This document shows positions 11,260-63,567 of a stretch of DNA of 64,000 nucleotides, in pieces. A program made the translations under genes and the position numbers. The notes under the pieces are model-generated. The model did no database searches. It saw only the letters and a list, made by a program, of their open reading frames with translations, and was not told the DNA's origin. This DNA is from Candidatus Babelota bacterium (GTDB lineage Bacteria > Babelota > Babeliae > Babelales > Vermiphilaceae): NCBI GenBank assembly GCA_042576225.1, contig JBHPCA010000002.1, positions 529 through 64,528 of the forward strand, read 5' to 3'. Numbering within the stretch: the stretch's first letter is position 1; each line of letters opens with the position of its first letter.

Positions 11260-11350
11260 AATTAGTGTATAGCTATTTGGATCACAATAGTGTATATATT
11301 AATAGATATAATTAAAAATAAGTATTATACGGTTATTATGGGTGATTATT

Positions 11351-12555: not shown

Positions 12556-12981
12556 ATGAAAAAAACAACAATCACTCTCTTTTCACTATATTTCTTGCTT
12601 TATTTTACCAATACCGCAGCCATGTACACATATGAAACTTATAAAACAAAAACCAAACAAGTAACTCAAGCAAACTATCCTCGCTTTTATAGAATTTATG
12701 AAAAAAGTAAAAATAATAAAACAGCAAAAAAATTCTTTATAACCATTAGTTTTAAAGAAAAGTTTATTGAAGATTTGAAACGCATATCAAAAGACAAAAA
12801 CGTTGCAAACATAAAAAAAATCAATCCACACTTATTGCAGTACATTATAAAAAAAGACGACGAAGAACTAGCTTCAAATATCGATAAGGCTCTATTGATA
12901 ATAGAAACACGCAAACTCTTTAAAAAGAAAAACAAAGAAAGCTCCAAACCTTTATGTATTTGCAAATCTTTTTTCAAATAA
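12556..12981 (+). CDS. hypothetical secreted Lys-rich protein
   Basis: Signal-like N-terminus MKKTTITLFSLYFLLYFTNTAA. No recognisable domain. Confidence 0.4.
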   Translation: MKKTTITLFSLYFLLYFTNTAAMYTYETYKTKTKQVTQANYPRFYRIYEKSKNNKTAKKFFITISFKEKFIEDLKRISKDKNVANIKKINPHLLQYIIKKDDEELASNIDKALLIIETRKLFKKKNKESSKPLCICKSFFK

Positions 12982-13120: not shown

Positions 13121-15268
13121 ATGAAGCACAAAAAGGGAGTCTTCTCACTCGCAACTTGCATATTTTTTGCATCAATTATTTTTTCTTTGCAAACTTACTG
13201 TAGCGAAGGTGAAAATAAACAGTGTTACGAGCTAGCCGAAAAATATAAAAAGGAAGGCAATAATTCACAGGCAATCTATTATTATAAAAAAGCCTTGGAA
13301 CATAAACCAAATCATTTGAGAACAATATTTGCGCTTGGAAGTCTTTTATACTCTGAAAGTAAATTTAATGAAGCACTTGAGTGCTTTGAAAAAGCCGAAA
13401 CGCTATACCCAAACTCTGCACAAATATACTTTAATCAATCTCTATGCCATATGCAGAAAAAAGATACCGACAAAACAATAGAATGCTTAAAAAAAGCAAT
13501 AGAGAAAAACCCGGACTATAAAAAAGCCTATAATCAACTTGGTTCAATTTTACATAAAAATAAACGGGATAAAGAGGCAATAGAATATCTTAAAAAATCT
13601 TTAGATAAAACCCCAAATGCATACAACACAATATTTTTACTGGCTAAATGCTTACGAAATGTGGATAATCTGGAATCTGCAAAAGAATATTTTATAAAAG
13701 CTCATAAACTAAAGCCTGAAAGCACTATTGCCATGATAGAACTTGCAAATACCTATAACATGTTGCACCAGCCAGAAAAGGCTGCTGAGCTGTACAAAAA
13801 AGTGTTAGAAATAAACCCTAATCAAATGGCCACAAAATATAATCTCGGTTATACACTTAAAAAAATGGGGCGTGTAGATGAAACAATTAAAATTTACAAA
13901 GAAATTTTAAAAGAAAAACCTGATTACGCACAGGCACAGTTTAGCCTTGCTTTGGCCTACCTTGTTTTAGGCGACTTTCAACAGGGCTGGGAAACATATG
14001 AATGGCGATGGAAGGCATATAAAGAAAACAAAAGAACATTTGACAAGCCTATGTGGGATGGCAGCAATCCTCGAGGCAAAACCATTTTATTATATGCAGA
14101 ACAAGGCCTTGGTGACACATTCCAATTTGTTCGATACGCAAAGCTACTTAAAAATATGGGCGCCACTATTATTGTTGCCGCACAAAGACCTGTCGTAAAA
14201 CTTTTACAACTTTGTAAATATATAGACGTAGTAGTCCCAAGAGGGGGGACTTTACCAAATTTTGATTACTACATTCACTTAATGAGTTTACCGTTACAAT
14301 TTAAAACAACCGTTGACACGGTCCCTGATGAAATCCCATATCTATATGCTAACCCAGAGTTAATAGATTACTGGAAAAAAGAACTTGGACCGGACAAAAA
14401 CTTTAAAATTGGTATCTGTTGGCAAGGAAATAAGGGGTACAGAAGCCAAGCATTAAAACATGCCGTTGCTGCAAAATCTATGCATGCCAGCATATTCAAA
14501 CCTTTGGCAGAAATTCCTGGAGTAAGTCTTTATTGTCTTCAAAAAGTAAACGGCGAAGAGCAGCTGAAAGAAATAGATTTTGAAATACACACGTTTGGCC
14601 CCGATTTTGATAAATCACACGGTAGATTTATGGACACTGCTGCGTTAATTAAAAACCTTGATCTAATAGTTTCTGTTGACACTTCAGTATGTCATGTCTC
14701 AGCGGCATTGGGAGCGCAAGTCTGGACGATGCTTCCAAACCCTGCTGACTGGAGATGGATGCTGAAAACAAACAAAACTCCTTGGTATCCAAACATGAGA
14801 CTATTTAGACAAAAAGAGTATGGTACTTGGGAAAACTTAATGCAGGCAGTAAAACAAGAAGTTTGCAAATTGGTAGGCGAAAAAAACGTGAAAGCTAGTA
14901 GCATTGATGACAAAAGTAAAATTGAGGACTTGCCATTCCAGGAAACCCTCGATAAACTAATAATCTTAAAAATAAAATATGATGACTCCCAAGATCCAAA
15001 CATTGGAAAAGAACTTGAAAAAACAGAAGATCAACTAAGAAAAATGTTACTTTTATACAAGGCAAACACAGACGAACTAGACACTCTAGCTGAAAAACTT
15101 TATGATATCAACTCGCAGCTCATCTATATGGACAAACAAATTTCAAAACTAGAAGACAAATCTGTTTTAAACCCAGATTTCATAGACCTCACAAAACGTG
15201 TGCTATTAATAAATAAACTAAAACAACATGTAAAAAAAGAGATAAAAGGTATCATAAAATCTAAATAA
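13121..15268 (+). CDS. TPR-repeat / GT9-like glycosyltransferase paralog 1 with C-terminal DUF6165-like module
   Basis: Signal peptide MKHKKGVFSLATCIFFASIIFSL and multiple TPR units. GT-B-like domain motifs: GLGDTFQFVRYAK, FKIGICWQG, YCLQK, FGPDFD..GRFMDTAALIKNLDLIVSVDTSVCHVSAALG, DWRW, TPWYPNMRLFRQ. An extra tail of about 120 aa follows. Confidence 0.75.
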   Translation: MKHKKGVFSLATCIFFASIIFSLQTYCSEGENKQCYELAEKYKKEGNNSQAIYYYKKALEHKPNHLRTIFALGSLLYSESKFNEALECFEKAETLYPNSAQIYFNQSLCHMQKKDTDKTIECLKKAIEKNPDYKKAYNQLGSILHKNKRDKEAIEYLKKSLDKTPNAYNTIFLLAKCLRNVDNLESAKEYFIKAHKLKPESTIAMIELANTYNMLHQPEKAAELYKKVLEINPNQMATKYNLGYTLKKMGRVDETIKIYKEILKEKPDYAQAQFSLALAYLVLGDFQQGWETYEWRWKAYKENKRTFDKPMWDGSNPRGKTILLYAEQGLGDTFQFVRYAKLLKNMGATIIVAAQRPVVKLLQLCKYIDVVVPRGGTLPNFDYYIHLMSLPLQFKTTVDTVPDEIPYLYANPELIDYWKKELGPDKNFKIGICWQGNKGYRSQALKHAVAAKSMHASIFKPLAEIPGVSLYCLQKVNGEEQLKEIDFEIHTFGPDFDKSHGRFMDTAALIKNLDLIVSVDTSVCHVSAALGAQVWTMLPNPADWRWMLKTNKTPWYPNMRLFRQKEYGTWENLMQAVKQEVCKLVGEKNVKASSIDDKSKIEDLPFQETLDKLIILKIKYDDSQDPNIGKELEKTEDQLRKMLLLYKANTDELDTLAEKLYDINSQLIYMDKQISKLEDKSVLNPDFIDLTKRVLLINKLKQHVKKEIKGIIKSK
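14917..15265 (+). other. DUF6165-like coiled module fused to glycosyltransferase paralog 1
   Basis: ETLDKLIILKIKYDD...LAEKLYDINSQLIYMDKQI...FIDLTKRVLLINKLKQHVKKEI aligns by eye with GELVDKITILQIKSENI...LATKLLVINKQLWDIEDDI...FIQLARSVYYTNDERCAVKRKIN in ORF 32349..33071. Confidence 0.55.
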
Positions 15269-15291
15269 ACAAATAGTTTTAAGGTCACATA

Positions 15292-16839
15292 ATGCAAAAG
15301 AAACTATTTTTTATCATAATTTTACTACCAACTATTTTGGGTGCGCATCAACAAAACTCGGCCCCCCACAATTTTTTTGAAAAAATTTTAAACCAAGCAA
15401 ATACACACTTTCATACACAAGAATTTGACCAAGCACTCACCTGTTATAAAAAGGCCCTTGAGATACAACCCAGCAGCGTAGAAAGCATGCTGAAAATCGC
15501 CCAAATTCTAGAGAAAAAAAATGAGCCACAGAAGGCAATAATTTACTATAAAAAAATTGTTGCCCTAGCACCAAAGTTTACATATGGGTTTTTAAAGCTA
15601 GCAAAACTACACCATATATTAAAACATTACCACGAAGCTCTCGCTTACTACAAAAAAGTTGATATGTTAAAACCAAATGACACCGCCATAATTTTTAGAA
15701 TAGCGAGTATTCAAAACGCTTTGGGAAAATGCAAAAAAGCCGCGAAAAATTTTTTAAAAATAGCAAAAATTGAACCTAAGAATATTTCAGCCCTTTACAA
15801 CACTGGTTATTCTTTAAAAGTTATGGGCGCTATTGATATGGCTATAGAACTTTATGATCAGGTATTGAAAATTAAACCAGATTATGATCTTGCCCTATAC
15901 GCAAAAGCACTAGCACTTTTATACAAAGGTGATTTTGAAAGAGGCTGGCCACTATACTCGCTTAGACTGATAAAAGAGAAGAGAAACGCACCAAAGCTAA
16001 GAAATTACATAAAAAACAATCAACTCAAAGACAAAATAATATTTCTTACCCCTGAGGGGGGATTTGGCGATACAATTCAATTTATAAGATATGCCGAAAA
16101 ACTTCATAAAAAAGGAGCTATAGTCATCGTTGCCGAAAGAAAACCTCTCATAAAACTACTGGCAAACTGTCCCTACATCGATAAACTAATTTCTACTGGC
16201 AAACGCCCAAATTTTTTCCATGATTACGCAAGCATAATGAGCCTGCCTGCAATATTTGAATCAAAAGAAGAAGATATTCCTAAACAAGTTCCATATCTTT
16301 TCCCTGACAAAAAACTGGAGAAAAAATGGCGTAAACATTTTGAAAATAATAACGCATTTAAAATTGGCTTGTGTTGGGAAGCTGACCTTAAAAATGACAA
16401 GTCTCGCCTTGCTTGCGCACACAGAAGCATACCGCTCGAAAAATTTGAAAAACTTTCCCATATTCCAAATATAGAGTTCTACAGCCTGCAAAAAAGTACC
16501 GGCTCTGATCAAATAAAAATTTTACCGGACCATTTCAAGGTAAAAACTTTTGGCCCTGACTTTGATAATTCCGCCGGCCCTTTTATGGACACCGCAGCAA
16601 TCATGAACCAACTTGACCTGGTCATAACAGTTGATACATCTGTGGCACATCTGGCAGGAGCCTTAGGGATACCAGTTTGGGTAACGCTCCCATACAACAC
16701 AGACTGGCGATGGATTGCAGGCAGAAAAGATTCCCCCTGGTATCCAACTATGAGACTTTTTAAACAAAAAGAGGCCCTTAATTGGGACCATGTTGTCGAC
16801 AATATATATTACGAATTAAAACAAAGAGTAGGCTCATGA
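15292..16839 (+). CDS. TPR-repeat / GT9-like glycosyltransferase paralog 2
   Basis: Signal peptide MQKKLFFIIILLPTILGA and TPR units. Motifs: GFGDTIQFIRYAEK, FKIGLCWEA, YSLQK, FGPDFD..GPFMDTAAIMNQLDLVITVDTSVAHLAGALG, DWRW, SPWYPTMRLFKQ. Confidence 0.75.
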   Translation: MQKKLFFIIILLPTILGAHQQNSAPHNFFEKILNQANTHFHTQEFDQALTCYKKALEIQPSSVESMLKIAQILEKKNEPQKAIIYYKKIVALAPKFTYGFLKLAKLHHILKHYHEALAYYKKVDMLKPNDTAIIFRIASIQNALGKCKKAAKNFLKIAKIEPKNISALYNTGYSLKVMGAIDMAIELYDQVLKIKPDYDLALYAKALALLYKGDFERGWPLYSLRLIKEKRNAPKLRNYIKNNQLKDKIIFLTPEGGFGDTIQFIRYAEKLHKKGAIVIVAERKPLIKLLANCPYIDKLISTGKRPNFFHDYASIMSLPAIFESKEEDIPKQVPYLFPDKKLEKKWRKHFENNNAFKIGLCWEADLKNDKSRLACAHRSIPLEKFEKLSHIPNIEFYSLQKSTGSDQIKILPDHFKVKTFGPDFDNSAGPFMDTAAIMNQLDLVITVDTSVAHLAGALGIPVWVTLPYNTDWRWIAGRKDSPWYPTMRLFKQKEALNWDHVVDNIYYELKQRVGS

Positions 16840-18383
16840 AGCGACCTTATGCATTCTTAAGTTTGTTTATTTTTGCCCATATGTGCATAAAAACAAGCTC
16901 AACAACTCTCTCTCAGACGTTCACAGAGGCAAACAACTTACTTATTAATAAAAAATATACACAAGCAATAGAACTGTATAAAAAAATTATAGCGCTAAAA
17001 CCGGATGTCCCAGGATTATATTTTAACGCAGGCTATGCATGTAAACTTGCAAAAAATTACCCCGATGCAATAGCATATCTTTCCAGGGTAGTAGAAATCA
17101 AACCAAACTGGACAAAGGCCTATAGTCTTTTAGGTGAAATATACCTGGCAATAGACGAATGTGAACTTGCTTTAAAGCATTTGTATAAAGCTATTAAACT
17201 AAACCCTCAAAGTGAAAATGACCATATAAATTTTGCCTCAACACTCATAAGACAAAAAAATTACCCAGAAGCAGAAAAGTACCTCAAAAAATTTGTAAAA
17301 AAATTCCCTAAAAATACAATTCTCACGTATAACCTTGCCTACATCCTTAGAATACAAGGCAAAGAGAAAGAGGCTATCCCTTACTATTTACAAGCACTTG
17401 AAACCGATCCAAGCTTTGATACTGCTCGCTTAGGAATAGCAAAAGCCTATCTTGCAACCGGACAACTTAAAAAAGGCTGGAACTATTTTGAATATCGCTT
17501 TCAAAACAACAAAATATCACACAAAAAATTTGATCATCATACTCTTGTTCCTGCTGACCTTACAAATAAAACGGTATTATTAAAATATGAGTGGGGCCTT
17601 GGTGATATGATGCAATTTATCAGATACGCAAAGTTGATCAAAAGCTATGGCGCAACTATTTTGGTAAGCATACAAAAACCATTACAAAAATTATTTTCTC
17701 TCTGCCCTTATATAGACAAAATTGTTAATGTTGGCGACCGCGTTCCAAAAATCGATTACAAAATTCCAATATTAAGTTTGCCGCTACTTTTCAATACCAC
17801 ACTGGAAACTATACCTGCAAATATCCCATATCTTTACGCAGATGAAAAACTAATCTCTCTCTGGAGAAATAAACTGTCACACAACAAAAACTTCAAAGTT
17901 GGTATATGCTGGCATGCAAAGCCTATATTCTTAGAAAATAACTATTTAACTAGACGCACCGTACCACTAAAAGATTTCGAACCCCTTGCAAACATAAAAA
18001 ATACAACTTTGTACAGCCTACAAAAAATATATGGACTTGAAGAATTGGATAATCTCCCTGATAATTTTAACATAGCTACTTTTGGCCCAGACTTTGATGA
18101 AACAAACGGAAGATTTATGGACACAGCAGCGCTCATTGAAAATTTAGACCTGGTCATAACTGCTGATACATCAATTGTCCATATTGCAGGAGCACTGGGA
18201 AAACCAGTTTGGATATTGGTACCCTATGTTGCTGAATGGCGATGGTTACAAAAAAGCAATCGCACACCATGGTATCCAAAAGCTCGTCTTTTTAGGCAAA
18301 AGCAGCCATCTGACTGGACCCATGTAATCAAAGAAGTAACAAAAGAACTCGAAAAACATATAAATAATAACCCTCAAAAGTAA
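16836..18383 (+). CDS. TPR-repeat / GT9-like glycosyltransferase paralog 3
   Basis: ATG at 16836 overlaps the previous TGA (ATGA) and gives signal peptide MKRPYAFLSLFIFAHMC. Motifs: GLGDMMQFIRYAK, FKVGICWHA, YSLQK, FGPDFD..GRFMDTAALIENLDLVITADTSIVHIAGALG, EWRW, TPWYPKARLFRQ. Confidence 0.75.
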   Translation: MKRPYAFLSLFIFAHMCIKTSSTTLSQTFTEANNLLINKKYTQAIELYKKIIALKPDVPGLYFNAGYACKLAKNYPDAIAYLSRVVEIKPNWTKAYSLLGEIYLAIDECELALKHLYKAIKLNPQSENDHINFASTLIRQKNYPEAEKYLKKFVKKFPKNTILTYNLAYILRIQGKEKEAIPYYLQALETDPSFDTARLGIAKAYLATGQLKKGWNYFEYRFQNNKISHKKFDHHTLVPADLTNKTVLLKYEWGLGDMMQFIRYAKLIKSYGATILVSIQKPLQKLFSLCPYIDKIVNVGDRVPKIDYKIPILSLPLLFNTTLETIPANIPYLYADEKLISLWRNKLSHNKNFKVGICWHAKPIFLENNYLTRRTVPLKDFEPLANIKNTTLYSLQKIYGLEELDNLPDNFNIATFGPDFDETNGRFMDTAALIENLDLVITADTSIVHIAGALGKPVWILVPYVAEWRWLQKSNRTPWYPKARLFRQKQPSDWTHVIKEVTKELEKHINNNPQK

Positions 18384-18395
18384 AGGATAAACTTC

Positions 18396-20171
18396 GTGCA
18401 AAAAAACAAAAACACCGAAAAAATAATTTTTAACTATGCAATCCCAGCCTTGACCATAGCCTCAATTATATTTTTAGGCTCTGCGATAAAAGATAGGTTT
18501 TCAAAAAGCATTGATCAACAAAAAACTGCCCTCTTGCAAACTAGCCAAACTGGGGACAATCTAGAAACCTTAGTCAATCTAGATTATCTTCAAAAGAAAA
18601 TAGAAATTGCAAGCGAGCTCACAAAAAATGGAGCAACCAAAAAAGCGATAGAGTATTATAAAACACTTTTACAATATGAGCGCACTTTTTCGATAATTCA
18701 TTTTAATATCGGCAAACTTTACTCAAATATAAAAAACTTCAAAAAAGCAGAGTACCATTTTAAAAAATCGATCGAACAAAGCCCCAAAAACTCAAATTCT
18801 CATACATTCTTAGGTGTAGCATTACGAAATATGGAACAATATGACGAATCAATAAAACATCTCAAAATAGCTATAAAACTTACTCCAAATTATTTTGACG
18901 CTAATCTACAACTAGGAAAAACGTATCTAGATATGGGAAAAACAATAAAAGCAATAAAATACAGTTATAAAGCAGCAAAACTATCACCAAAGAGCATATA
19001 CCCACATTTAAATATCGCTTATTCATATAACAAACAGGGAAACCTTGAGAAAGCCGTCGAAATTTATCGACAAGTCATTAAAATTGATCCTCAATGCGCC
19101 AATGCACATTACAATCTTGGCTACTCCCTAAAGATTTTAGGAAAACTAAAAGAGGCCGTTACCTTCTTGGACAAAGCAATTTCACTAAAACCCGATTATT
19201 TAGACGCTCACATTGCAAGATCACAATCTAAGATTGCATTACAAAACTTCGATGAGGGTTGGGATGAATATGAATGGCGCTGGGGATTATTCGGCATGGA
19301 TCCACATAAATACAAAGCTGGTATGTGGGACGGCTCCAACATCAAGGGCAAGACTATATTGCTAAGAACAGAACAGGGACTTGGTGACACTATGCAATTC
19401 GTACGTTTGGCAAAACAGGTAAAAGCAATGGGTGCGAAAAAAGTTATCTGTAAAGTACAAAAACCTCTAGTAAAACTGCTTTCAAACTGCGACTTTATTG
19501 ACAAAGTAATACATGATCTTGACGATGCAGGAAAGTATGATCATTATGCCCACCTTATGAGCTTACCAAGAATTTTAAAAATGCAACCTGACACCATCCC
19601 TGCAGAAATCCCATACTTCAAAGCTGATCCAAAATTGGAAAAAGAGTGGCGTGAAAAACTCCAAAAAGATAAAAACTTTAAAATTGGTATCTGCTGGCAT
19701 GTTGACCCAGTTCATGAGGAAACAAAATCGCCCTGGTCACTCCGGTCGGTCAACTTAAAACAGCTCAAGCCTTTTGCAAAACTAAAAAATGTTACCTTCT
19801 ACAGCTTACAAAAACTTCAGGATCAACAACAACTTGCACTCGTTCCTGAGGGGATGAACTTCCAACATTTCGGCCCTGATTTTGACAAGAAAAATGGTAG
19901 CTTCATGGACAGCTCAGCAATTATAAAAAGCTTAGATCTTGTTGTCACAGTTGATACCTGCGTTGCTCACCTTGCCGGCGCTTTGGGCAAAGAAGTATGG
20001 ATGCTACTTCCATATTCACCAGATTGTCGCTGGTACCTCAACACTGATAAAACTCCTTGGTATCCAACCATGACACTCTTTAGACAGGATAAACCACAAA
20101 GTTGGGATAGTGTAATAAATAAAATCGCAACATCACTTGAAAAAGAGATTAAAAAACATAAAACAACGTAA
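18396..20171 (+). CDS. TPR-repeat / GT9-like glycosyltransferase paralog 4
   Basis: GTG start and N-terminal anchor IIFNYAIPALTIASIIFLGSAI, with TPR units. Motifs: GLGDTMQFVRLAK, FKIGICWHV, YSLQK, FGPDFD..GSFMDSSAIIKSLDLVVTVDTCVAHLAGALG, CRWY, TPWYPTMTLFRQ. Confidence 0.75.
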   Translation: MQKNKNTEKIIFNYAIPALTIASIIFLGSAIKDRFSKSIDQQKTALLQTSQTGDNLETLVNLDYLQKKIEIASELTKNGATKKAIEYYKTLLQYERTFSIIHFNIGKLYSNIKNFKKAEYHFKKSIEQSPKNSNSHTFLGVALRNMEQYDESIKHLKIAIKLTPNYFDANLQLGKTYLDMGKTIKAIKYSYKAAKLSPKSIYPHLNIAYSYNKQGNLEKAVEIYRQVIKIDPQCANAHYNLGYSLKILGKLKEAVTFLDKAISLKPDYLDAHIARSQSKIALQNFDEGWDEYEWRWGLFGMDPHKYKAGMWDGSNIKGKTILLRTEQGLGDTMQFVRLAKQVKAMGAKKVICKVQKPLVKLLSNCDFIDKVIHDLDDAGKYDHYAHLMSLPRILKMQPDTIPAEIPYFKADPKLEKEWREKLQKDKNFKIGICWHVDPVHEETKSPWSLRSVNLKQLKPFAKLKNVTFYSLQKLQDQQQLALVPEGMNFQHFGPDFDKKNGSFMDSSAIIKSLDLVVTVDTCVAHLAGALGKEVWMLLPYSPDCRWYLNTDKTPWYPTMTLFRQDKPQSWDSVINKIATSLEKEIKKHKTT

Positions 20172-20206
20172 TAACACAAAACAAAAACTCGTGCGAAAAA
20201 TAGATT

Positions 20207-20239
20207 AAAAAAAGGCCCCGGAAATCCGGGGCCTTTTTT
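20207..20239. terminator. bidirectional intrinsic terminator between the convergent glycosyltransferase and beta-helix blocks
   Basis: Perfect 8-bp GC stem ggccccgg (20214-20221) / ccggggcc (20226-20233) with loop aaat. Flanked by an A-run (20207-20213) and a T-run (20234-20239). Confidence 0.8.
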
Positions 20240-20254
20240 AAGTCTATTGCTAGC

Positions 20255-21922: not shown

Positions 21923-21990
21923 AATTCATCCCTTTTTTGTTTTTAATTAGACAGCTCTACTCACAGTTTACTATTCACCATGCAATCCCA

Positions 21991-24546: not shown

Positions 24547-24592
24547 TAGGTCTCCTTTTAATTTAAGTTATTAATATTTAAATAATTATCAA

Positions 24593-26701
24593 TTAATATG
24601 GGGGTATTGAAACGTTATAATGTAATTGATCAATGCCTACAAGACCACAATACCAAACATTGAGCACTTTTTGTGAGAAACTCAAGTCACATTCGTAACA
24701 GATATTTTTCAATATCGAGTTACAATCACTAGAGCCAAATATTCCAATACCGCCTAGACCACCAGTAACATTTGCAACTTTATTGTTATACACAACACAC
24801 TTAGTAGGAGCAATACCAACTTCAATAATATTGAAGTTAGGAATAATTGATCCATCATCGCCACCAAATACCAAGAAATTACCTGACGGAGACCAATCAA
24901 GACCGCCTTGGCTAACCTGTATACCAAGTGATTTTGAGTACACAAGAGAAATTACCGGACTTACGGATGGATCAAACTTGTATACACCAACAGTTCCATT
25001 AGTTGCAAATACTGCAAAATAGTTACCATTAGGCGCCCATTTTATTCTCAATACAGTATCATCAAAAAGCGCTGCGCCTCCAAATACCAAATCTATCCCA
25101 TCAAATGAATAAACATTTATATTTGCAGTTGCCCCAGTTCCAACAGCAACAAGATAATATTTGCCATTACATGCAATTGGACACCACTGCACATCATTTA
25201 TCCCTGTCAAACCGGTTGATGTGTCTGATGCAACTTGTACAGTTGAAAATGGTATATGCGTTTTCCAATCTCTTACAAACAAGTCTCCAGTTGCGTATGA
25301 TCCAAAGGCTATAAATTTCTCATCTGGAGTAATATCTGGATTTGTTAAATCAGTTAACCCCGTGTCAATTCCTGCACCTGAATTTGCAACATTTGTCAAA
25401 GTACCATCAACCTTGTAAACATCAATAAAAGCTCCGCCCCTGATATACACAACATATTTTCCGCTTCTAAACCAGACAGGATCGGAAACATCTACATCTG
25501 GGTTATCACCCATTATCAGCCCATAAAGCGTATCATACACAACAACTTCATCGTCTTGCCCTGAAAGCGCCCCTATAGCCAAATACCTTCCAGTAGGATC
25601 CCACTCAATATGTCGCTTGTCGTTAGAGGTGGTAGTTAAACTACTAACCTCATGCCATGTCTTACAATTAAAGTCTAATATTTTTACAGGTCCAGCACTT
25701 ATTCCCTCTGAAGCCTCACCTGAGAAAACAATCGCTATCTTATCCCCAAGGGGCGACCATGAAATATCTGCTATAGAATCTTCAAAATTACTTAATATTG
25801 CCGGGCACCCTGATGCAGGGTCTGCAATAAGTGTGCTTTTGAATACCGACTCCAGAATTATACCATACGCATTACCCAACTCTGCGCCGGTTAAAGAATC
25901 TACCAGGCAATTTATAATCTTTGACTCTGTTTCACCTGCATCCTCCCCTGTTGAGGCAAATCTAAATCCTATAGCATCTTTCCCAAATTCACTTGCTGAT
26001 TTGTAAATTCCCTCTGCCATACACTCAAAGAAAAGATTATCTTGACCACTTATGGCAGAAAAACCTACGGCCTGCTTATCTGCAAAAGAACTTCCAGTTC
26101 TAATAGCTTTACACTTTTTTATTTTGTTGTACTTGGATTTTGTAAAAACAAAGCCACCTTCTGTACAACAACAACTTTCACAATTTTCAAACACACAATT
26201 CATTGCAAAATCAATTGAAAAACCAAAAGAAGAATCTGCTACAAAACAATTTGTAACTTTACAACATCGAACATATTTATCAATTGCACCAGAAAAAGCT
26301 ATACCAGTAGAACAGTTTGCTACATTGAGATCTTGAATAACAATATTCTGCGCGCTGTCATCAATTAATACACCAGTATTAACCTGGTCGCTACCAAAAA
26401 TTGATCCATTCTGTATAACAATATTTTTTTGACCTTCACCTACATTAAACACAGAAGTCTTTGCAGCATTCCCTGATACAGTAAAACCTTTAAGGTTTAT
26501 CAAGACATTATCTGCATTAACCGTTATGTCCCCTGTTATATTTTCTATAACATGATATGAACCTGGTTCTGTGATTATCGTTGTCCCGTTTTTAATTATT
26601 TGATGCGCAGGACCAACACCAAATAGGTTTATCTGGCTTATCTGAGAAAATATCGTAGAACAAAAAGATAAAAGAAGAAGTATAGGTATTTTGTACTTCA
26701 T
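24593..26701 (-). CDS. secreted Cys-rich parallel beta-helix protein with embedded beta-propeller (paralog 3, SIPPY C-terminus)
   Basis: 702 aa starting with the MKYKIP signal peptide. Helix turns (VRCCKVTNCFVADSSFGFSIDFAMNCVFENCESCCCTEGGFVFTKSKYNKIKKCKA) and the family motif ETESKIINCLVDS. Blades ISWSPLGDKIAIV, IEWDPTGRYLAIG, IKWAPNGNYFAVF, LDWSPSGNFLVFG. Ends NKVANVTGGLGGIGIF...VSIPPY. Confidence 0.7.
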   Translation of the reverse strand: MKYKIPILLLLSFCSTIFSQISQINLFGVGPAHQIIKNGTTIITEPGSYHVIENITGDITVNADNVLINLKGFTVSGNAAKTSVFNVGEGQKNIVIQNGSIFGSDQVNTGVLIDDSAQNIVIQDLNVANCSTGIAFSGAIDKYVRCCKVTNCFVADSSFGFSIDFAMNCVFENCESCCCTEGGFVFTKSKYNKIKKCKAIRTGSSFADKQAVGFSAISGQDNLFFECMAEGIYKSASEFGKDAIGFRFASTGEDAGETESKIINCLVDSLTGAELGNAYGIILESVFKSTLIADPASGCPAILSNFEDSIADISWSPLGDKIAIVFSGEASEGISAGPVKILDFNCKTWHEVSSLTTTSNDKRHIEWDPTGRYLAIGALSGQDDEVVVYDTLYGLIMGDNPDVDVSDPVWFRSGKYVVYIRGGAFIDVYKVDGTLTNVANSGAGIDTGLTDLTNPDITPDEKFIAFGSYATGDLFVRDWKTHIPFSTVQVASDTSTGLTGINDVQWCPIACNGKYYLVAVGTGATANINVYSFDGIDLVFGGAALFDDTVLRIKWAPNGNYFAVFATNGTVGVYKFDPSVSPVISLVYSKSLGIQVSQGGLDWSPSGNFLVFGGDDGSIIPNFNIIEVGIAPTKCVVYNNKVANVTGGLGGIGIFGSSDCNSILKNICYECDLSFSQKVLNVWYCGLVGIDQLHYNVSIPPY

Positions 26702-26748
26702 TAGGTCTCCTTTTAATTAAAAGTTAGTGTTACACTATAAACTACACC

Positions 26749-29304
26749 TTAGCTGCAAAATGACGTACAGCAGAAACCTTCAAACGCCAAGTTGTCTAGT
26801 GGTCTTGGCTTGATAAACATATTTGAAACTTTCATGTCATAGAACGTGTTAAACACACCTTCACTTGCATTCACACCATTTCCTGATAGCAAGTTTTTGT
26901 CTATTAAATTGCAACAGCCTGGAGCCATGATTCCAATTGCACACAATCCACCGGAAACATTTGCAACCTTGTTGTTTTGCACCACACAGTTCATGACACA
27001 TATTCCAGCTGATATAACTTCAATGTTTGTCGAATAAAGCTGCTGAATATCGCCCGCCATAACAATAAACCTTCCGCATGGTGACCAATCTAGCCATTTA
27101 TCACCTGAAATTCGAGGGGTAGGAATATAATCTACATAAGTAAGTACCGAACTCGCAGAAAGAGAAGGATCAAAATCGTATTTAATAAGTGTTGTACCCG
27201 TTACTACAAGGCTCTTGCCGTCAGGCGCCCATTTCACATCAGTCAAATCAGCATCTATATCTTCTACAGTCAATGATGTAAGTGCATTGTTTATATAATT
27301 ATACTCAAACACTTCTAAGTTCTGAGCAGGACTCCCTGCATACCCAACCACTGCTAAATAATACTTGTCACGAGATGCGATTGGATTCCAATCTGCATTC
27401 TTAACACTGGTACCGGAAGTTAAGTTGTCAGCTAATACATCTACGGTACCGTAGAACTTTGCAAAACTAGCAATATTTAATGTATTTATCTTTTCCGACA
27501 AGCCATAAACCAATCCATTATCATCCGGCGTGAGGGCCAAAGCTTTAGAAGAATTTGTCACATCAACAACTCTATTTTCAACCAAATTCAGGTTTGCACC
27601 GTCAAATGTAAAGTTAACAAGTTTTGCTTCTTCAGTAACATCGAAATTTAAATATGTATAGACAGCATAATTAGAGGTTGTGCCTATTTGCAGATTAGTA
27701 TTGCTCGAAATAACCGTATTTTTTCCGCCCTTCGTTGTCACAAAAATATGTCTTCCATCACGAGACCAAACTATACGTAAAATATCATCTGGGGCCTTTG
27801 CCTGCCCAAGCTCAATTGGCTTATTTTGAATATATGATCCTACCTCACTAGTCTTCAAAGTCCTTATAGGGCCAGGAAGACCTGGGGTTGTAACAATAGT
27901 TGGAGTTGATATCGTAGAATAATAAGATTCAGAAAGAACCTGAGTATCTCCATCATAAATCGTAACATCATTTATACCAACATGCTCATCATCAACTAAG
28001 GTCAATAACTCAGAATCAAACCGATAAACCAAAAGTTCTTTTTTTACATTATGCAAAAAAGTCACAGTATGCAGATTGTCCACCTGCTGGCTAGAATCAG
28101 ATATCCAGGATACCCAAGCTTGTCTACTTTCAATTTCAGCAAAACCATCTGTACCAACTGCCAAGTGGTGACCATCTGGTGCCCACGCAACAGCATTAGC
28201 CGGTATGCTTACAATATCAGTAATACCTGAATCAGCAGGATTCGTAATTACCTTCAACTCAACTCTATCAACCTCTCGCAAGGTTTGGCCATCAAAATGC
28301 AAAACCCTTACTGTACCATCTGAGCACGCAATTGCGACGTAATCACCTTGTGGCGACCAATCAACATCGTTTATAACATCATCAAAAAGACCGGCTGTAA
28401 CACTTGTAAGCAAACTTGATGCTTTACCCTCCAAGTAAATACCAAACGCATTGCCAAATCCTGCACCGGCAACAGAGTCAACACAGCAATCTATAATTTT
28501 AGACTCTCTTTCTTCGACAATATTGCTCTCTGATCTGTAACCGAGCACAAAACCCATCGCTTTTGTAAACCAATCACTATCAACTTTATAGATACCCTCT
28601 GCCATACACTCATAAAACAGGTTATCCCAACCACTCAAAGCAGCAAAGCCATATGCATTAGAGTCTGCCGTATCATGCCCTATTCTTATTGCTTTACATT
28701 GTTTAAATTTATTGTACTTACAATTTTCTAAATGAAACCCATATTTACACTCGCAAACCTCACAATCTTTAAAGACACAATTGTTAGCGTAAGCCATGAA
28801 TAAACCGTAGTCGCAACCTGTTACAACACAGTTTCTAACCAAGCAACATTCAATAGGAGTTCCCTCAAAGCCACCAAGGTATATTGCTTTATCTCCGCCA
28901 TAGATCTTTAGATTCTCTAGAATTACGTTTTTTACCCCTAAATATAACTGTACACCTTCATAAGCACCGGAAGTAATTATCGTACCATTTCTTATTATGA
29001 CATTTTGATGTCCAGGCTCTATTCTTATCACATCTCTATCATGATATTCTATGGTAAATCCATTCAGTTCAACAATAACATTGTCAACATCAACCGTAAT
29101 ATTACCTATTATATTTTCTATAAGGTGATACGAACCTGGCTTTGTTATTACTGTTTCAACGCCATTTTTAATAATGGTACTCTCTGGCTGCATTGAATTC
29201 ATGAGAGACAATAACGGATTGCCTTTGTTAAAATCTAAACATGTTTTGGTAAAAACCGAAAACGTAAACAATAAAAGAAGAAGTATAGGAATTTTGTACT
29301 TCAT
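26749..29304 (-). CDS. secreted Cys-rich parallel beta-helix protein with embedded beta-propeller (paralog 4, Cys-rich tail)
   Basis: 851 aa starting with the MKYKIP signal peptide. Motifs ERESKIIDCCVDSV, VDWSPQGDYVAIACSDGTVRVLHFDG, VAWAPDGHHLAVGTDG, IVWSRDGRHIFVTTKGGK, VKWAPDGKSLVVTGT, NKVANVSGGLCAIGIM. Tail ends FEGFCCTSFCS. Confidence 0.7.
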   Translation of the reverse strand: MKYKIPILLLLLFTFSVFTKTCLDFNKGNPLLSLMNSMQPESTIIKNGVETVITKPGSYHLIENIIGNITVDVDNVIVELNGFTIEYHDRDVIRIEPGHQNVIIRNGTIITSGAYEGVQLYLGVKNVILENLKIYGGDKAIYLGGFEGTPIECCLVRNCVVTGCDYGLFMAYANNCVFKDCEVCECKYGFHLENCKYNKFKQCKAIRIGHDTADSNAYGFAALSGWDNLFYECMAEGIYKVDSDWFTKAMGFVLGYRSESNIVEERESKIIDCCVDSVAGAGFGNAFGIYLEGKASSLLTSVTAGLFDDVINDVDWSPQGDYVAIACSDGTVRVLHFDGQTLREVDRVELKVITNPADSGITDIVSIPANAVAWAPDGHHLAVGTDGFAEIESRQAWVSWISDSSQQVDNLHTVTFLHNVKKELLVYRFDSELLTLVDDEHVGINDVTIYDGDTQVLSESYYSTISTPTIVTTPGLPGPIRTLKTSEVGSYIQNKPIELGQAKAPDDILRIVWSRDGRHIFVTTKGGKNTVISSNTNLQIGTTSNYAVYTYLNFDVTEEAKLVNFTFDGANLNLVENRVVDVTNSSKALALTPDDNGLVYGLSEKINTLNIASFAKFYGTVDVLADNLTSGTSVKNADWNPIASRDKYYLAVVGYAGSPAQNLEVFEYNYINNALTSLTVEDIDADLTDVKWAPDGKSLVVTGTTLIKYDFDPSLSASSVLTYVDYIPTPRISGDKWLDWSPCGRFIVMAGDIQQLYSTNIEVISAGICVMNCVVQNNKVANVSGGLCAIGIMAPGCCNLIDKNLLSGNGVNASEGVFNTFYDMKVSNMFIKPRPLDNLAFEGFCCTSFCS

Positions 29305-29393
29305 TAGGTCTCCTTTTAATTAAAAGTTAGTATTGCATCATAAATCACACAAAACTATACACTACTACAAAATGCTCGCACAGTACTAAATTC

Positions 29394-31910
29394 TTAGTAT
29401 GGAGGAATTGACCAGTTACCTAAAATACTGTGCTTGCCTGCCAAGCCTTTATAGAATACGTTGTACACACCTTCTGTAAAGTTGACACAATTTTCATACG
29501 CAACATTTCTTGTAATGCAATTACAACATGATGCACCCATTATGCCGATTGAGCAAAGGCCACCAGTTGCATTTGCAACTTTATTACTATCAACAAGACA
29601 ACACTTCACGCTGTCGCCAACCTCTAGTACCTCAACATTCAAAACATCTTGCGTATTTTCTCCTGCAATAACAATATATTTGCCACACTCACCCCAATCA
29701 ATGTATTTTGCCCCTGCAATTTGAGTATCGTACACAAAAGTACTTTCCAATGTACCCGTCACACCTGCAACACTAAAACTAAATACACCCACCTCGTTTG
29801 TTGGACCTGTACCTGTAACAACTAAATCTTTACCACTTGGCGCCCATTTTACTGAGGTCAACATACTGTCAAATACTTGTGCAACAAGTGATGTTACGGT
29901 TGTACCACCTTTGTACTGGAACACTTCTAGGTTAGAACCATCTAATACACCTGCAACTGCCAACAGATAATTATCACAGCATGCAATAGGATTCCAATCT
30001 ACACTATCTACCAATGTATTTGAACTTGCATTATCAACAACCATAGTCCCAAATGAATCTGCTAGTATTTCATCTATGCGCAACTTATTAGCATTTTCAG
30101 ATACCCCATAAGAAATATATTTGTCATCCGGCGAAACGGCCAATGCCTTTGACGCATTAGTAGAGTCTAAAACTTTGTACTTTTTGGCCTTTATTGTGCT
30201 ACCATCAAATGAGAAACTCACAATTTTTGCTTGCTCAGTGAAGCTAAAATTTAAATAAGCATAGTTAATATAATAACCTATAATATCTTCCCAATCAGTA
30301 TTTCCTGATACACTCGTAGTTTTTCCGCCTTTTGTTGTAACAAAAATATTTCTTCCGTCACGAGACCAAACTATACGTAAAACATCATCTGACGCCTTCA
30401 CATTATCAATTTTAAATGGCCAATTGCCATACCAAACCAAATCAAAAGGATTAGGATCAGGCATACCTCTTACAGGACCAGGGAGACCTTGCGGAAACAT
30501 GATGCTTGGATAGGGACCCGATGCAATATTTCCTCCTCCTTCAGACCAGGTCTTTGTTGTGCCATCATAAATTCTTTTAATTTCATTTAATCCAACATAC
30601 TCATCATCCACAAGCGCTAGTGAGCCACAATCAAACTTATAAACCAAAAGCTCCTTTTTTACATCATTCAAAAAATTAATCTCGTGAGTTGAGTTTACTT
30701 GATCAACCTCTAGTTCCCGATACCCCACATTAACTGTAACTCCCTCCAAAACAACAGCTTCACCATCTGTTCCAACTGCTAAGTATTGTGCATCGGGAGA
30801 CCAAGCAACGGCGTTAACCGGTCTATCAAATAATGTATCACTCGCAACCAGGCTTAGGGAAGTACCGTCAAACCTTAAAACTCTTACAGAATTGTCATTA
30901 CATGCTATTGCAATGTGTTTACAATCTGGGGATATATCCATATCTTTTATATTTTCATCAAACAAACCTGTCGTTACCGAAGATAGAGAATCTAGCATAC
31001 GAGTATCTAATTTGATGCCGATTGCGTTTGCCCAACTTGTACTGGAAACAGAATCTACCAAACAATTTATAATTTTTGATTCTCTTTCTGTTCCAGTAAG
31101 CAAGAACCCAATTGCTTTGGTACACCAATCACTGTCATACCCACCTTTGTAAATATGTTCTGCAAAACACTCAAAAAACAAGTTGTCTACACCACTTTCA
31201 GATACATAACCAAGAGCCATTTTTGTCGGATCATCACTACCCACATCAACAGCTATACAATGCTTAAACTTGTTATACATACAATATTGCAAATCAAAAC
31301 CTGCTTCTTGGCAAAAACATACTTCACAATCTTTGAAGACAGATCTCTTAACGTAGGTAAGCTCATATGCTTTGACACAACTTGTGGTAAAACAGTTATC
31401 AACTTTAGAACATTTTATCTCTTGGCCTTTTTCACCCGCAAAATTCATACTATTTTGCAAGTTTGAAAGATACAAGTCTTGCAAAAATATTCCACTTGTG
31501 CCTTTGTCAACTAAGACACCGTCATTAGTTGTATCACCAACAATGGAACCATTGTGAATTAAAATATTTCTCTGACCTTCACTTACCATAATTAAAGAGC
31601 TAGTAGAACCTGAAACGGTAAAGCCATTCAGATTGATAATAACATCACTTGCGTTAATTAAAATATTGCCATCAATATTTTCAAGCACTTGGTAAGAACC
31701 AGGCTCTGTAATATTTGTAGCAGCACCATCTTTAATAATCTGTTGAGCCGGATACATAGACTTCAACATGGTTAAAATGCCACCGTTAGTTAAATCTATG
31801 CACGTATTTGGAGATTGTGAAAATATCGCAATGGGTGTTAATATGGGTGTTAATAAAAGAAGAAGTGTTGCCAAAATCGGCACTCCCTTACGCAAGGACT
31901 TGTACTTCAT
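29394..31910 (-). CDS. secreted Cys-rich parallel beta-helix protein with embedded beta-propeller (paralog 5, SIPPY C-terminus)
   Basis: 838 aa with signal peptide MKYKSLRKGVPILATLLLLL. Motifs ERESKIINCLVDSV, MDISPDCKHIAIACNDNSVRVLRFDG, VAWSPDAQYLAVGTDG, IVWSRDGRNIFVTTKGGK, VKWAPSGKDLVVTGT, NKVANATGGLCSIGIM. Ends WSIPPY. Confidence 0.7.
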   Translation of the reverse strand: MKYKSLRKGVPILATLLLLLTPILTPIAIFSQSPNTCIDLTNGGILTMLKSMYPAQQIIKDGAATNITEPGSYQVLENIDGNILINASDVIINLNGFTVSGSTSSLIMVSEGQRNILIHNGSIVGDTTNDGVLVDKGTSGIFLQDLYLSNLQNSMNFAGEKGQEIKCSKVDNCFTTSCVKAYELTYVKRSVFKDCEVCFCQEAGFDLQYCMYNKFKHCIAVDVGSDDPTKMALGYVSESGVDNLFFECFAEHIYKGGYDSDWCTKAIGFLLTGTERESKIINCLVDSVSSTSWANAIGIKLDTRMLDSLSSVTTGLFDENIKDMDISPDCKHIAIACNDNSVRVLRFDGTSLSLVASDTLFDRPVNAVAWSPDAQYLAVGTDGEAVVLEGVTVNVGYRELEVDQVNSTHEINFLNDVKKELLVYKFDCGSLALVDDEYVGLNEIKRIYDGTTKTWSEGGGNIASGPYPSIMFPQGLPGPVRGMPDPNPFDLVWYGNWPFKIDNVKASDDVLRIVWSRDGRNIFVTTKGGKTTSVSGNTDWEDIIGYYINYAYLNFSFTEQAKIVSFSFDGSTIKAKKYKVLDSTNASKALAVSPDDKYISYGVSENANKLRIDEILADSFGTMVVDNASSNTLVDSVDWNPIACCDNYLLAVAGVLDGSNLEVFQYKGGTTVTSLVAQVFDSMLTSVKWAPSGKDLVVTGTGPTNEVGVFSFSVAGVTGTLESTFVYDTQIAGAKYIDWGECGKYIVIAGENTQDVLNVEVLEVGDSVKCCLVDSNKVANATGGLCSIGIMGASCCNCITRNVAYENCVNFTEGVYNVFYKGLAGKHSILGNWSIPPY

Positions 31911-32016
31911 TAGATCTCCTTTTAATTAGAAAATTAGTGTTTAGCTTAACTTACACAAAAATATACAATACTTTACATTACTAGGTTTAGGGTACACAAG
32001 TTAAAATAAAAAATCA

Positions 32017-32110
32017 ACCCTCCGGCATCCCCCTTCGCTCGTTCCGAGCTACGGAGGACAAGAGCTCAGGGCAGGTTCCTTCTGCCCAAAGTTCTCGCAT
32101 TGTTAAACCT
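32017..32110. repeat. GC-rich dispersed repeat element, copy B, in the divergent intergenic region
   Basis: cccttcgctcgttccgagctacggaggacaa (32031-32061) matches ccccctacgctctttcagagctacggaggacaa (63516-63548). The inner hairpin gctcG-ttc-Cgagc versus gctcT-ttc-Agagc shows a compensatory pair change. Followed by the hairpin gggcag-gttcctt-ctgccc. Confidence 0.45.
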
Positions 32111-32348
32111 CGATACGCCTGACTTTGTCCTTTATCAAGCTCACAACTATGCCAGACTACTCAGGACTATTTCTAACCGTCCTATCACGCATATTAATTC
32201 AAAGTTCCAGAAAAGGCGAAATAAATCCTTTACTCTTTTGAAAATTTTTAGTAGAAATTATTGGAATTAACTATTTGAACTCAAAAAGAAAGGAAAATTG
32301 CAAAAGAATAATAAACCATTTTAACCACTTTTACCCAAAGGAGATAAC

Positions 32349-33071
32349 ATGAAGTACACAAATAAAATAATTGCATTATCCGTGCTGTGTGCAATATACG
32401 CACAGACATCTTTTAGTTGCGACGAATGCGATAGAATAAAACAACAATATGATAATCCACCAAGCTCTATTGAACAACCAAAAGGCTGTTCCTGCTCACA
32501 ACCAAAACCCCCAAAACCAAAAAGTGAAGATGAAGAGAAAGGCTGCTCTTGTTCTCAACCAAAACCCCCAAGACCAAAAAGCGAAGATGAAGAAAAGGGC
32601 TGCTCCTGCTCACAACCAAAACCACCAAGACCAAAGGGATGCTCCTGCTCGCAACCAAAACCACCCCGCCCAAAAGACGACTCAAAAGTAACCGCTGAGA
32701 TCGCAGTTGGTGAGTTAGTAGACAAGATTACCATCTTGCAAATCAAATCAGAGAATATCAAAGATACAGCAAAGCTAGAAAATATTCATAGAGAGCTTGA
32801 GGCACTTGGTGAAACATTAGACGAACGTGTAGAGAAATCTCCTGAGCTTGAGGACCTTGCAACCAAACTTCTTGTAATTAACAAGCAACTTTGGGATATA
32901 GAGGACGACATCAGAGACAAAGAACGTGCCAAAGAATTCGATACCGAATTTATTCAACTAGCTCGAAGCGTTTACTACACAAATGATGAAAGATGCGCTG
33001 TAAAAAGAAAAATCAATGATCTTACAGGATCGAGACTTCAAGAAGAAAAATCTTATAAAGATTATAAGTAG
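32349..33071 (+). CDS. secreted protein: Cys/Pro/Lys tandem repeats plus C-terminal DUF6165-like domain
   Basis: Signal peptide MKYTNKIIALSVLCAIYAQTS and four KGCSCSQPKPP(K/R)PK repeats. The C-terminal 120 aa (GELVDKITILQIK...INKQLWDIEDDIR...LARSVYYTNDER...EEKSY) looks like the DUF6165 family as I recall it. Confidence 0.7.
   Translation: MKYTNKIIALSVLCAIYAQTSFSCDECDRIKQQYDNPPSSIEQPKGCSCSQPKPPKPKSEDEEKGCSCSQPKPPRPKSEDEEKGCSCSQPKPPRPKGCSCSQPKPPRPKDDSKVTAEIAVGELVDKITILQIKSENIKDTAKLENIHRELEALGETLDERVEKSPELEDLATKLLVINKQLWDIEDDIRDKERAKEFDTEFIQLARSVYYTNDERCAVKRKINDLTGSRLQEEKSYKDYK
32481..32675 (+). repeat. in-frame tandem repeat (two 57-nt units, then two 39-nt units)
   Basis: Encodes KGCSCSQPKPPKPKSEDEE, KGCSCSQPKPPRPKSEDEE, KGCSCSQPKPPRP and KGCSCSQPKPPRP. 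The units differ mostly at synonymous sites. Confidence 0.85.
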
Positions 33072-34783: not shown

Positions 34784-34994
34784 ATCTACAAAAAACAAAA
34801 CTAATCAAGAAATCACCAGCTACTTTGCGTCTTGTAATAACAATTCACATCTCTCTTCCCAAAATATCATTTCTCATCTCACATCACCCTGAGCTTGAAA
34901 AAACATAAGAATCTGGAAAAAATAATCCCGTGTACTATACTTGAGTATTATATACTTATTAAAAAAAATTATCACAAAATATATATGGGAAGAA

Positions 34995-39229: not shown

Positions 39230-39344
39230 TAAAAGAGAGAGGTTAACCGGTATTATTGGAGTTATTTTCAAATAATGCGCCCTTTAAGTTATTTGTTTAT
39301 ATTTTTAATTGTTTTTAACTAAACCAAATATGGAGGAAAATAAT

Positions 39345-63510: not shown

Positions 63511-63567
63511 CTGGTCCCCCTACGCTCTTTCAGAGCTACGGAGGACAATCTACGCTTTAGCGTAGAT
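63511..63567. repeat. GC-rich dispersed repeat element, copy C, plus 9-bp-stem hairpin
   Basis: Shares the gagctacggaggacaa core with copy B. The hairpin aatctacgc-ttta-gcgtagatt (63547-63568) abuts the tRNA-like fragment. Confidence 0.45.

Follow-up and report, generated by a model that had tools for sequence, protein, structure and literature searches.

Two separable gene sets, a TPR-glycosyltransferase/DUF6165 module and a beta-helix/WD40-propeller array, probably make up a 20-kb locus of a Candidatus Dependentiae genome

We analyzed a 64,000-nucleotide stretch of DNA (GenBank assembly GCA_042576225.1, contig JBHPCA010000002.1, positions 529 to 64,528 of the forward strand; hereafter the window) from a Candidatus Dependentiae metagenome-assembled genome. 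Dependentiae are intracellular parasites of protists; they are widespread, hardly any have been cultured, and their host-manipulation toolkit is largely uncharted. Within about 20 kb, the window contains four plus-strand genes for glycosyltransferases (GTs) with tetratricopeptide repeats (TPRs), an intrinsic terminator, five minus-strand genes for beta-helix/WD40-propeller proteins (helix-propeller, or HP, genes) and a divergent plus-strand gene for a DUF6165 protein. The initial annotation of this region had described the same layout, which we confirmed (Table 1), and had hypothesized that it forms one island in which the GTs may glycosylate the HP proteins or the PKPP-repeat protein. From our analysis, we propose that the locus is probably a composite of two parts and not one enzyme-substrate island. 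One part would be an old GT/DUF6165 module, consisting of tandemly expanded TPR-GT9-like genes and the gene for DUF6165, a small helical protein, at a fixed site between hflX and uvrD in Dependentiae. The other would be a clade-specific, fast-diverging tandem array encoding secreted, Cys-rich HP proteins that embed a WD40 propeller in a right-handed beta-helix. The HP array is found between the GT genes and the DUF6165 gene solely in a group of close relatives, and the adjacency of the two parts is best accounted for if the array was placed there once in an ancestor and has been inherited vertically since.

This proposal is based on the distribution of the two gene sets across genomes. The GT domain family is large (at least 7778 matches), and its members were found in at least 599 stretches of species genomes, including those of Planctomycetota, Alphaproteobacteria, Cyanobacteria and Nitrospira, among others. 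In a sample of 80 GT loci from other phyla (L008-L087), we found no HP genes, and DUF6165 was fused to or directly followed the GT in 14 of them. All-against-all clustering of the neighboring genes identified no recurrent GT neighbors beyond GT paralogs and antisense frames, and a Pfam census of 108 immediate GT neighbors revealed no dominant family (flagellin, GT41 and DUF4254 were each observed twice). In more distant Dependentiae, GT arrays without HP genes were also observed at the same genomic position as the one in the window, which lies among core genes: trmD, ffh and hflX to its left, and uvrD, a TrpRS/TyrRS-class synthetase gene, PGM/PMM and DUF502 to its right. Two such contigs are collinear with the window: a 1.48-Mb contig (L089) with the order trmD-ffh-hflX-...-GT x2-Ank-DUF6165-UvrD-...-TrpRS-PGM-DUF502, which is the backbone of the window minus the HP genes, and a second contig (L088), in which trmD-ffh-hflX-... 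is followed by a tandem run of six GT genes and, beyond a short gap, by another three, again with no HP gene. Conversely, HP genes were present without a nearby GT at five loci (L006/L007, L105/L110, L108, L111 and L112), where the surrounding genes are housekeeping or ankyrin genes (L105/L110 has PriA, RNase T and Ddl; L108 has three ankyrin genes). Independent occurrence of the gene sets in related genomes, which the initial annotation had named as evidence against its own proposal, was thus observed, as GT and HP genes were each found without the other.

HP genes adjoin GT genes, DUF6165 genes or both in the window and in contigs L001/L002/L093, L003/L101, L004/L097, L005, L092, L096, L100 and L103, which comprise every contig with close HP homologs and a visible array boundary at this locus. 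The UvrD protein of the window is 71%, 70% and 68% identical to those of L001, L005 and L100, respectively, versus 47% for the HP-less L089. Among the HP-bearing loci, the GT gene order GT1(DUF)-...-GT2-GT3-(GT4) is kept, and the outermost GT, an ortholog of GT1, carries the DUF6165 fusion in L004/L097, L092 and L101. By these features, the HP loci adjacent to GTs are all forms of a single locus, orthologous among close relatives. Each of the two sets is found independently of the other, and their adjacency amounts to approximately one evolutionary event; having been inherited at one locus, it should not be counted as evidence for an enzyme-substrate relationship. We also considered whether one GT subfamily tracks the HP genes. 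Orthologs of GT4 (63-70% identical) adjoin the HP array in L004/L097, L092 and L096, but they are missing from L003/L101, and we rejected this idea as a rule.

The description of the region as one 20-kb island did not hold up in other respects. Its GC content (0.36-0.40) is the same as that of its flanks, no tRNA gene lies inside or adjoining the region, and no integrase or transposase was found among the annotated open reading frames (ORFs). Because the composition is ordinary and the GT array is syntenic across Dependentiae, we rejected a horizontally acquired island as an explanation.

The four GTs each contain N-terminal TPR repeats and a C-terminal GT domain of ~300 amino acids. Their scores against the Pfam GT9 family (PF01075) were 22.7 (GT1), 22.6 (GT3), 19.0 (GT2) and 18.6 bits (GT4) relative to a cutoff of 22, with a match spanning only ~30 residues at the C-terminal motif; PF01075 was the sole Pfam match to the isolated GT domain of GT1 at E<=1. 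An AlphaFold model of the GT2 domain, built from a 53-homolog alignment, had a pLDDT of 94.7, and a Foldseek search of the PDB with this model returned as top matches the GT9 enzymes 3tov (Veillonella), 1psw (WaaF), 4rap (TibC) and 2h1h (WaaC), with E-values from 5e-8 to 1e-4. Residues G47-D48, which follow the first strand, and H241 are invariant across 33-53 homologs, including all four window GTs; D236, also present in all four, is invariant in one alignment (A1) and at least 90% conserved in another (A4). The putative donor-binding residues whose loss would have spoken against the initial annotation are thus in place, as all four proteins carry both the Gly-Asp motif and the C-lobe DTxxxH motif (D-T/S-x-x-x-H). 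By analogy, we take these residues to correspond to WaaC D13 and D261, and their function is presumed on the same basis. The model and the intact GT9-type motifs make the GT domains credible GT-B enzymes.

At the sequence level, this GT family is distant from every curated family. The window GTs scored 12-20 bits against the lipopolysaccharide (LPS) heptosyltransferase equivalogs TIGR02193/02195/02201 (cutoffs 135-185), with 18-20 bits for the heptosyltransferase I model (cutoff 185), and GT2 alone matched the Aah/TibC model TIGR04414, with 14.3 bits against a cutoff of 200. No match to the GT41 catalytic domain (PF13844) was found in the four GTs at E<=0.01 (for GT1, among the matches listed, which covered 25 of 31 families), and GT41, OGT or HMW1C-type catalytic structures were absent among the 50 listed fold matches. 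A sequence search of the PDB with the GT1 GT domain as a single query gave no match, and a profile search gave TPR proteins alone when the full-length GT profile was used and one chance match when it was limited to the domain. The TPR part of the window GTs matches the TPRs of OGT and SPINDLY strongly. Our literature search found nothing on TPR-GT9 proteins or on Dependentiae glycosyltransferases.

HMW1C, Aah/TibC and FlmG, the precedents for a GT acting on a neighboring protein, are cytoplasmic enzymes that act before export and are not known to carry signal peptides. The bacterial autotransporter heptosyltransferases (BAHTs), TibC and Aah, are likewise cytoplasmic and are not known to have a TPR region or a signal peptide, and their substrates are beta-helical autotransporter adhesins encoded next door. 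The window GTs resemble the BAHTs in their GT9-related GT-B fold (TibC ranked high in the Foldseek search, with E 1e-5 and TMq ~0.5), but they have TPRs and signal-like N-termini, and their neighbors are HP proteins rather than recognized autotransporters. WaaC, WaaF and 3tov were better structural matches (E 5e-8 to 3e-7, TMq ~0.6) and have the Gly-Asp and DTxxxH motifs in common with the window GTs, although identity in the Foldseek alignments is 9-12%. Unlike the window GTs, the LPS enzymes have no TPR fusion, signal-like N-terminus or DUF6165 partner. OGT, SPINDLY and HMW1C also place a TPR array before a protein-modifying GT-B domain, but the catalytic domain of the window GTs is not of the GT41 type.

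The same two-domain build and size, a TPR region followed by a GT-B domain, is found in FlmG, the flagellin glycosyltransferase known from Caulobacter and Brevundimonas, which we compared by architecture. In FlmG, residues 1-313 are described as a TPR region that binds flagellin and residues 309-596 as the GT-B domain, and the pathway is cytoplasmic (PMC7591256); the C-terminal GT-B domain (~290 amino acids) sets the donor, and the TPR region spans ~300 amino acids (PMC7591256; bioRxiv 10.1101/2022.03.25.485807). The passages of these two reports that we consulted mention no DUF6165 partner. The analogy to known systems drawn in the initial annotation stands with respect to the TPR plus GT-B build of FlmG, but it breaks down with respect to location: the precedents are cytoplasmic and FlmG acts on flagellins, whereas the window GTs have export-type N-termini and no flagellin gene was identified in the window. 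A Pfam search of 37 of the 38 window ORFs of at least 150 amino acids, plus a 141-amino acid ORF at 12556-12981, identified neither flagellin nor Pse/Leg genes. A few members of the window GT family do adjoin flagellin genes elsewhere (2 of the 108 immediate neighbors), both in loci of other phyla (e.g., L037 4906-6240), and GT41-type OGT genes adjoin them in two loci. By analogy to FlmG and OGT, we infer that the window GTs are most likely protein-directed, with the TPR region serving as a protein-binding arm and the GT-B domain as a catalytic arm.

Each of the ten proteins encoded here begins with a K/R-rich segment, after which comes a hydrophobic 13-mer (Kyte-Doolittle 2.1-2.8). This agrees with the initial annotation, which had assigned export signals to both gene sets; we called these putative signals from hydrophobicity. 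The hydrophobic segment of GT4 begins at residue 15 and looks more anchor-like. Such a segment was present in 47-69 of the 108 closest GT homologs, depending on the threshold, versus 1 of 112 GT ORFs from other phyla, and this sole positive resembles a TPR helix. As the segment is seen in GT and DUF6165 proteins of the Dependentiae type but not in those sampled from other phyla, the export-type N-terminus marks a lineage-specific gain common to both families. With their Sec-type signals, the Dependentiae-type GTs and DUF6165 proteins would most likely have host or envelope targets and work beyond the bacterial cytoplasm. These signals do not fit the cytoplasmic precedents, but they fit a report on the cultured Dependentiae species Chromulinavorax, in which 44% of coding sequences have signal peptides and Sec is the suggested secretion route for putative effectors (PMC6561590).

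The proposed module includes DUF6165, which the initial annotation had placed at both ends of the array. A BLASTP comparison aligned the final ~115 residues of GT1 with the stand-alone DUF6165 protein (30% identity, E 2e-8), indicating homology, although the Pfam model misses the GT1 copy: the stand-alone protein scored 33.6 bits against PF19662 (cutoff 27), while the C-terminal domain of GT1, which has lost the LWxIEDxIR motif, gave no match at E<=1. The GT-DUF6165 fusion recurs in L004/L097, L092 and L101 and in other phyla. From its distribution, we conclude that DUF6165 belongs to the GT system, as it tracks the GT family and not the HP genes. The stand-alone protein has at least 7949 homologs and is 46-56% identical to those of other phyla. 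Among 120 listed homologs, the 19 closest have a signal peptide and a Cys/Pro-rich N-terminal extension, many with CxCxQPKPP-type repeats, and 13 of these 19 have a clearly hydrophobic N-terminal stretch; the other 101 are bare domains of ~130 amino acids without the extension. The public annotation of this gene (P0280) gives a 123-amino acid DUF6165 protein, and the ATG at 32349, which is preceded by AAAGGAGA, gives 240 amino acids. The longer version is probably the right one, since comparable extensions are present in the 19 closest homologs. A PDB search with DUF6165 returned coiled-coil noise only, and our literature search found nothing on this family. DUF4254, a family related to DUF6165, adjoins a TPR-GT in two loci of other phyla.

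The five HP genes are paralogs. Their products combine a NosD-like right-handed beta-helix with a WD40 propeller, preceded by a signal peptide, and also have a Cys-rich tail, which is lost in HP1t. HP1t and HP2 are 86.7% identical over 1430 nucleotides. An AlphaFold model of HP3 (pLDDT 80, pTM 0.84) predicts a beta-helix at residues 33-290, a propeller of the seven-bladed type at 305-625 and more helix rungs at 636-675. A fold search of the PDB with this model matched generic WD40 propellers alone, with no solved structure fitting the whole protein; relative to NosD/pectate-lyase-like beta-helix proteins and WD40 proteins, the HP proteins join both folds and add rungs after the propeller and a Cys-rich tail. 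The description of these proteins as Ser/Thr/Asn-rich in the initial annotation proved overstated: they are mildly Ser/Thr-rich at most (14-16%, versus 14% in UvrD), they are not Asn-rich, and they are notably rich in Cys (22-38 residues). Neither Pfam nor NCBIfam reported an autotransporter family in the HP proteins. An exhaustive HMMER search identified 1160 family representatives at E<1e-30 (a word-indexed protein search, with 13 homologs, was an undercount), and ~50 of 150 listed matches align to the profile from end to end. Giant HP proteins of 1,500 to ~3,700 residues contain two or three helix-propeller modules in tandem (L104 53-7291 and 7329-14609; L106; P0140-P0154), and still longer listed matches (to ~4,700 amino acids) fit mainly the propeller part. 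The HP proteins are probably surface or secreted host-interaction proteins. They form an uncharacterized, fast-diversifying secreted family and may act as adhesins or host-binding factors.

The GT and HP arrays are convergent and are parted by the shared bidirectional terminator that the initial annotation had noted. We also read a strong hairpin at this position, and it was the only strong terminator-like site in a scan of the region. Every HP gene seems to own a conserved promoter or leader. The leaders of HP2 to HP5 have their last ~27 nucleotides in common, including AAGGAGA, and end in AAGGAGACCTA-ATG; the shared leader reads ACTAACTTTTAATTAAAAGGAGACCTA-ATG (regions 31911-32018 and 29305-29366). 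The ~108 nucleotides immediately before HP5 recur ahead of HP paralogs in nearly all related loci (Table 1). No copy of this HP upstream element was found before the GT genes, and no promoter or leader motif common to GT and HP genes was found; nothing in these sequences points to co-regulation of the two arrays. A different element, of 32 nucleotides, lies at 32229-32260, ~90-120 nucleotides ahead of the DUF6165 start codon. It is ~91% conserved before the DUF6165 gene of L005 and before a GT-DUF6165-GT operon in L001, and could serve the GT/DUF6165 module as a promoter or operator. The otherwise AT-rich region between HP5 and the DUF6165 gene also contains a GC-rich block of ~190 nucleotides (32010-32200) that folds better than its shuffles (z -4.0 on the minus strand and -3.1 on the plus strand). 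A 34-nucleotide stretch of this block recurs with 91% identity at 63515-63548, inside a tRNA cluster near 63.5 kb. The block and its partial copy had no Rfam match, and the block is not conserved in related loci.

Several observations weigh against a composite of two unrelated parts. The HP array is kept inside the GT/DUF6165 locus throughout the clade despite local rearrangement, with orders that differ between the window (GT x4 / HP x5 / DUF), L001 (HP / GT-DUF-GT) and L005 (HP / Ank / DUF-GT). Over the span in which the array stayed in this locus, the HP proteins diverged to ~31-47% identity, and linkage retained despite such divergence could reflect selection for it. GT4 orthologs were seen solely in HP-bearing loci and always adjoin the HP array. 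The HP-less comparison genomes are more distant, such that HP loss there is possible, and the related contigs come mostly from a few metagenomes. The proposed site of action poses a further difficulty: a GT-B enzyme requires a nucleotide sugar, which is absent from the periplasm, and an exported enzyme would therefore need delivery to the host or an unusual donor. In a bolder reading, a TPR-GT9/DUF6165 protein-glycosylation module that is normally cytoplasmic would, in its Dependentiae-type members, have been redirected for export and tandemly expanded into a new class of secreted, Sec-dependent effectors; these would draw on host nucleotide sugars to glycosylate host proteins or, outside the cell, the HP proteins of the parasite itself, with DUF6165 as an obligatory small partner. 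In this specific form, we regard the idea as unlikely.

The pairing proposed in the initial annotation, in which the TPR-GTs glycosylate the HP proteins, the PKPP-repeat DUF6165 protein or both, in the manner of TibC/TibA, Aah/AIDA-I and HMW1C/HMW1, draws on some of the same observations, namely the GT/HP adjacency in all clade contigs with a visible HP boundary and the GT4 orthologs that always abut the HP array. It is also consistent with the large beta-helix surface that the HP proteins would offer, with the ranking of TibC, an enzyme whose heptosylation target is a beta-helical autotransporter, near the top of the structural matches and with the binding of protein substrate by FlmG TPR domains (PMC7591256). 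However, the GT and HP sets each occur without the other, the GT-adjacent cases all derive from one orthologous locus, and the TibC match is no better than those to LPS heptosyltransferases, with a score against the Aah/TibC model far below its cutoff. Furthermore, the precedents modify their substrates in the cytoplasm prior to export and are not known to carry signal peptides, while every window GT has a signal-like N-terminus; the two arrays are separate convergent transcription units with differing upstream elements; and their copy numbers are unlinked, as L088 has 9-10 GT-type ORFs and no HP gene, compared to four GT and five HP genes in the window. The enzyme-substrate claim is thus unsupported, and we consider it decidedly unlikely in this direct form. 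A variant in which the hydrophobic N-termini are anchors, so that membrane-tethered GTs on the cytoplasmic side modify secretory precursors, including HP proteins, at the Sec translocon would remove the donor-sugar problem and square the export signals with the cytoplasmic precedents, and the GT4 segment looks more anchor-like. By the positive-inside rule, however, K/R-rich residues before a hydrophobic segment place the bulk of a protein outside, and all four GTs have such residues; DUF6165, moreover, has gained the same type of N-terminus together with a Cys/Pro-rich linker typical of extracytoplasmic proteins. We therefore judge this variant very improbable; taken together, the direct and tethered forms leave an enzyme-substrate pairing as a minority prospect, though not a negligible one.

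The GT9-like enzymes might instead be envelope glycolipid or LPS-core-type GTs, with the TPRs used for assembly and the HP genes as unrelated neighbors. The best fold and motif matches, to WaaF and WaaC, are consistent with this, and sequence-family matches are limited to GT9 and heptosyltransferase I, but the equivalog scores are a small fraction of the cutoff. To our knowledge, LPS heptosyltransferases work at the cytoplasmic face and have neither TPRs nor signal peptides. In addition, a core-oligosaccharide pathway would not be expected to comprise nine or ten tandem paralogs, as L088 does in its reduced genome, and in a few genomes members of the GT family adjoin genes for flagellin or GT41-type OGT; we see little chance that this explanation is correct. 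We therefore favor the composite of an old GT/DUF6165 module and a clade-specific HP array. If its exported TPR-GT9 and DUF6165 proteins are indeed active outside the cell, they would constitute a new family of secreted glycosylating effectors and would offer a first functional handle on DUF6165, a family with thousands of members and no assigned role.

Table 1. Coordinates of the GT/DUF6165 and HP genes, associated elements and synteny anchors in the window
Feature	Coordinates	Strand	Description
hflX	11342..12553	+	Pfam GTP-bdg_N/M, MMR_HSR1; left synteny anchor; also flanks the GT arrays of L088 and L089
GT1	13121..15268	+	Signal-like N-terminus, TPR, GT9-like GT-B domain (~285-590), degenerate DUF6165-like C-terminal domain (~600-715)
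GT2	15292..16839	+	Signal-like N-terminus, TPR, GT9-like domain
GT3	16836..18383 (alternative start 16782)	+	ATG overlaps GT2 stop (ATGA); signal-like N-terminus, TPR, GT9-like domain
GT4	18396..20171	+	N-terminal hydrophobic anchor or signal, TPR, GT9-like domain
Bidirectional intrinsic terminator	20208..20239	both	AAAAAAGGCCCCGG-AAAT-CCGGGGCCTTTTTT; 14 pairs, 8 G-C; A- and T-runs on either side
HP1t	20255..21922	-	Truncated paralog; most of beta-helix and Cys-rich tail deleted
HP2	21991..24546	-	Signal peptide, beta-helix, WD40 propeller, Cys-rich tail (38 Cys)
HP3	24593..26701	-	Short form, 702 amino acids
HP4	26749..29304	-	851 amino acids
HP5	29394..31910	-	838 amino acids
HP5 upstream/leader region	31911..32018	-	~108 nucleotides; 72-77% identical before HP paralogs in L001-L005 and L090-L103
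DUF6165 protein	32349..33071	+	Signal peptide, four CSCSQPKPP(R)PK repeats, DUF6165 domain 114-240; 240 amino acids
uvrD-type helicase	34941..37361	+	Right synteny anchor

Three other features of the window and its relatives were observed. The GT array of L088 (6326-21432) packs nine TPR-GT genes into ~15 kb, along with one weak GT-like ORF on the opposite strand, and is large for a reduced genome. In the left flank, the trmD gene of the window (7701-9011, minus strand) encodes a 436-amino acid protein in which TrmD is fused to a second S-adenosylmethionine-dependent RNA methyltransferase domain (Methyltrn_RNA_4), and the same fusion is present in L088 and L089. Eukaryote-type domains on exported proteins are a typical feature of host-associated bacteria; to the right of the DUF6165 gene, signal-like N-termini were observed on proteins with ankyrin repeats (33265-34707), an M48 peptidase domain with TPRs (37381-38895) and TPRs with a zf-MYND domain (39309-40361).

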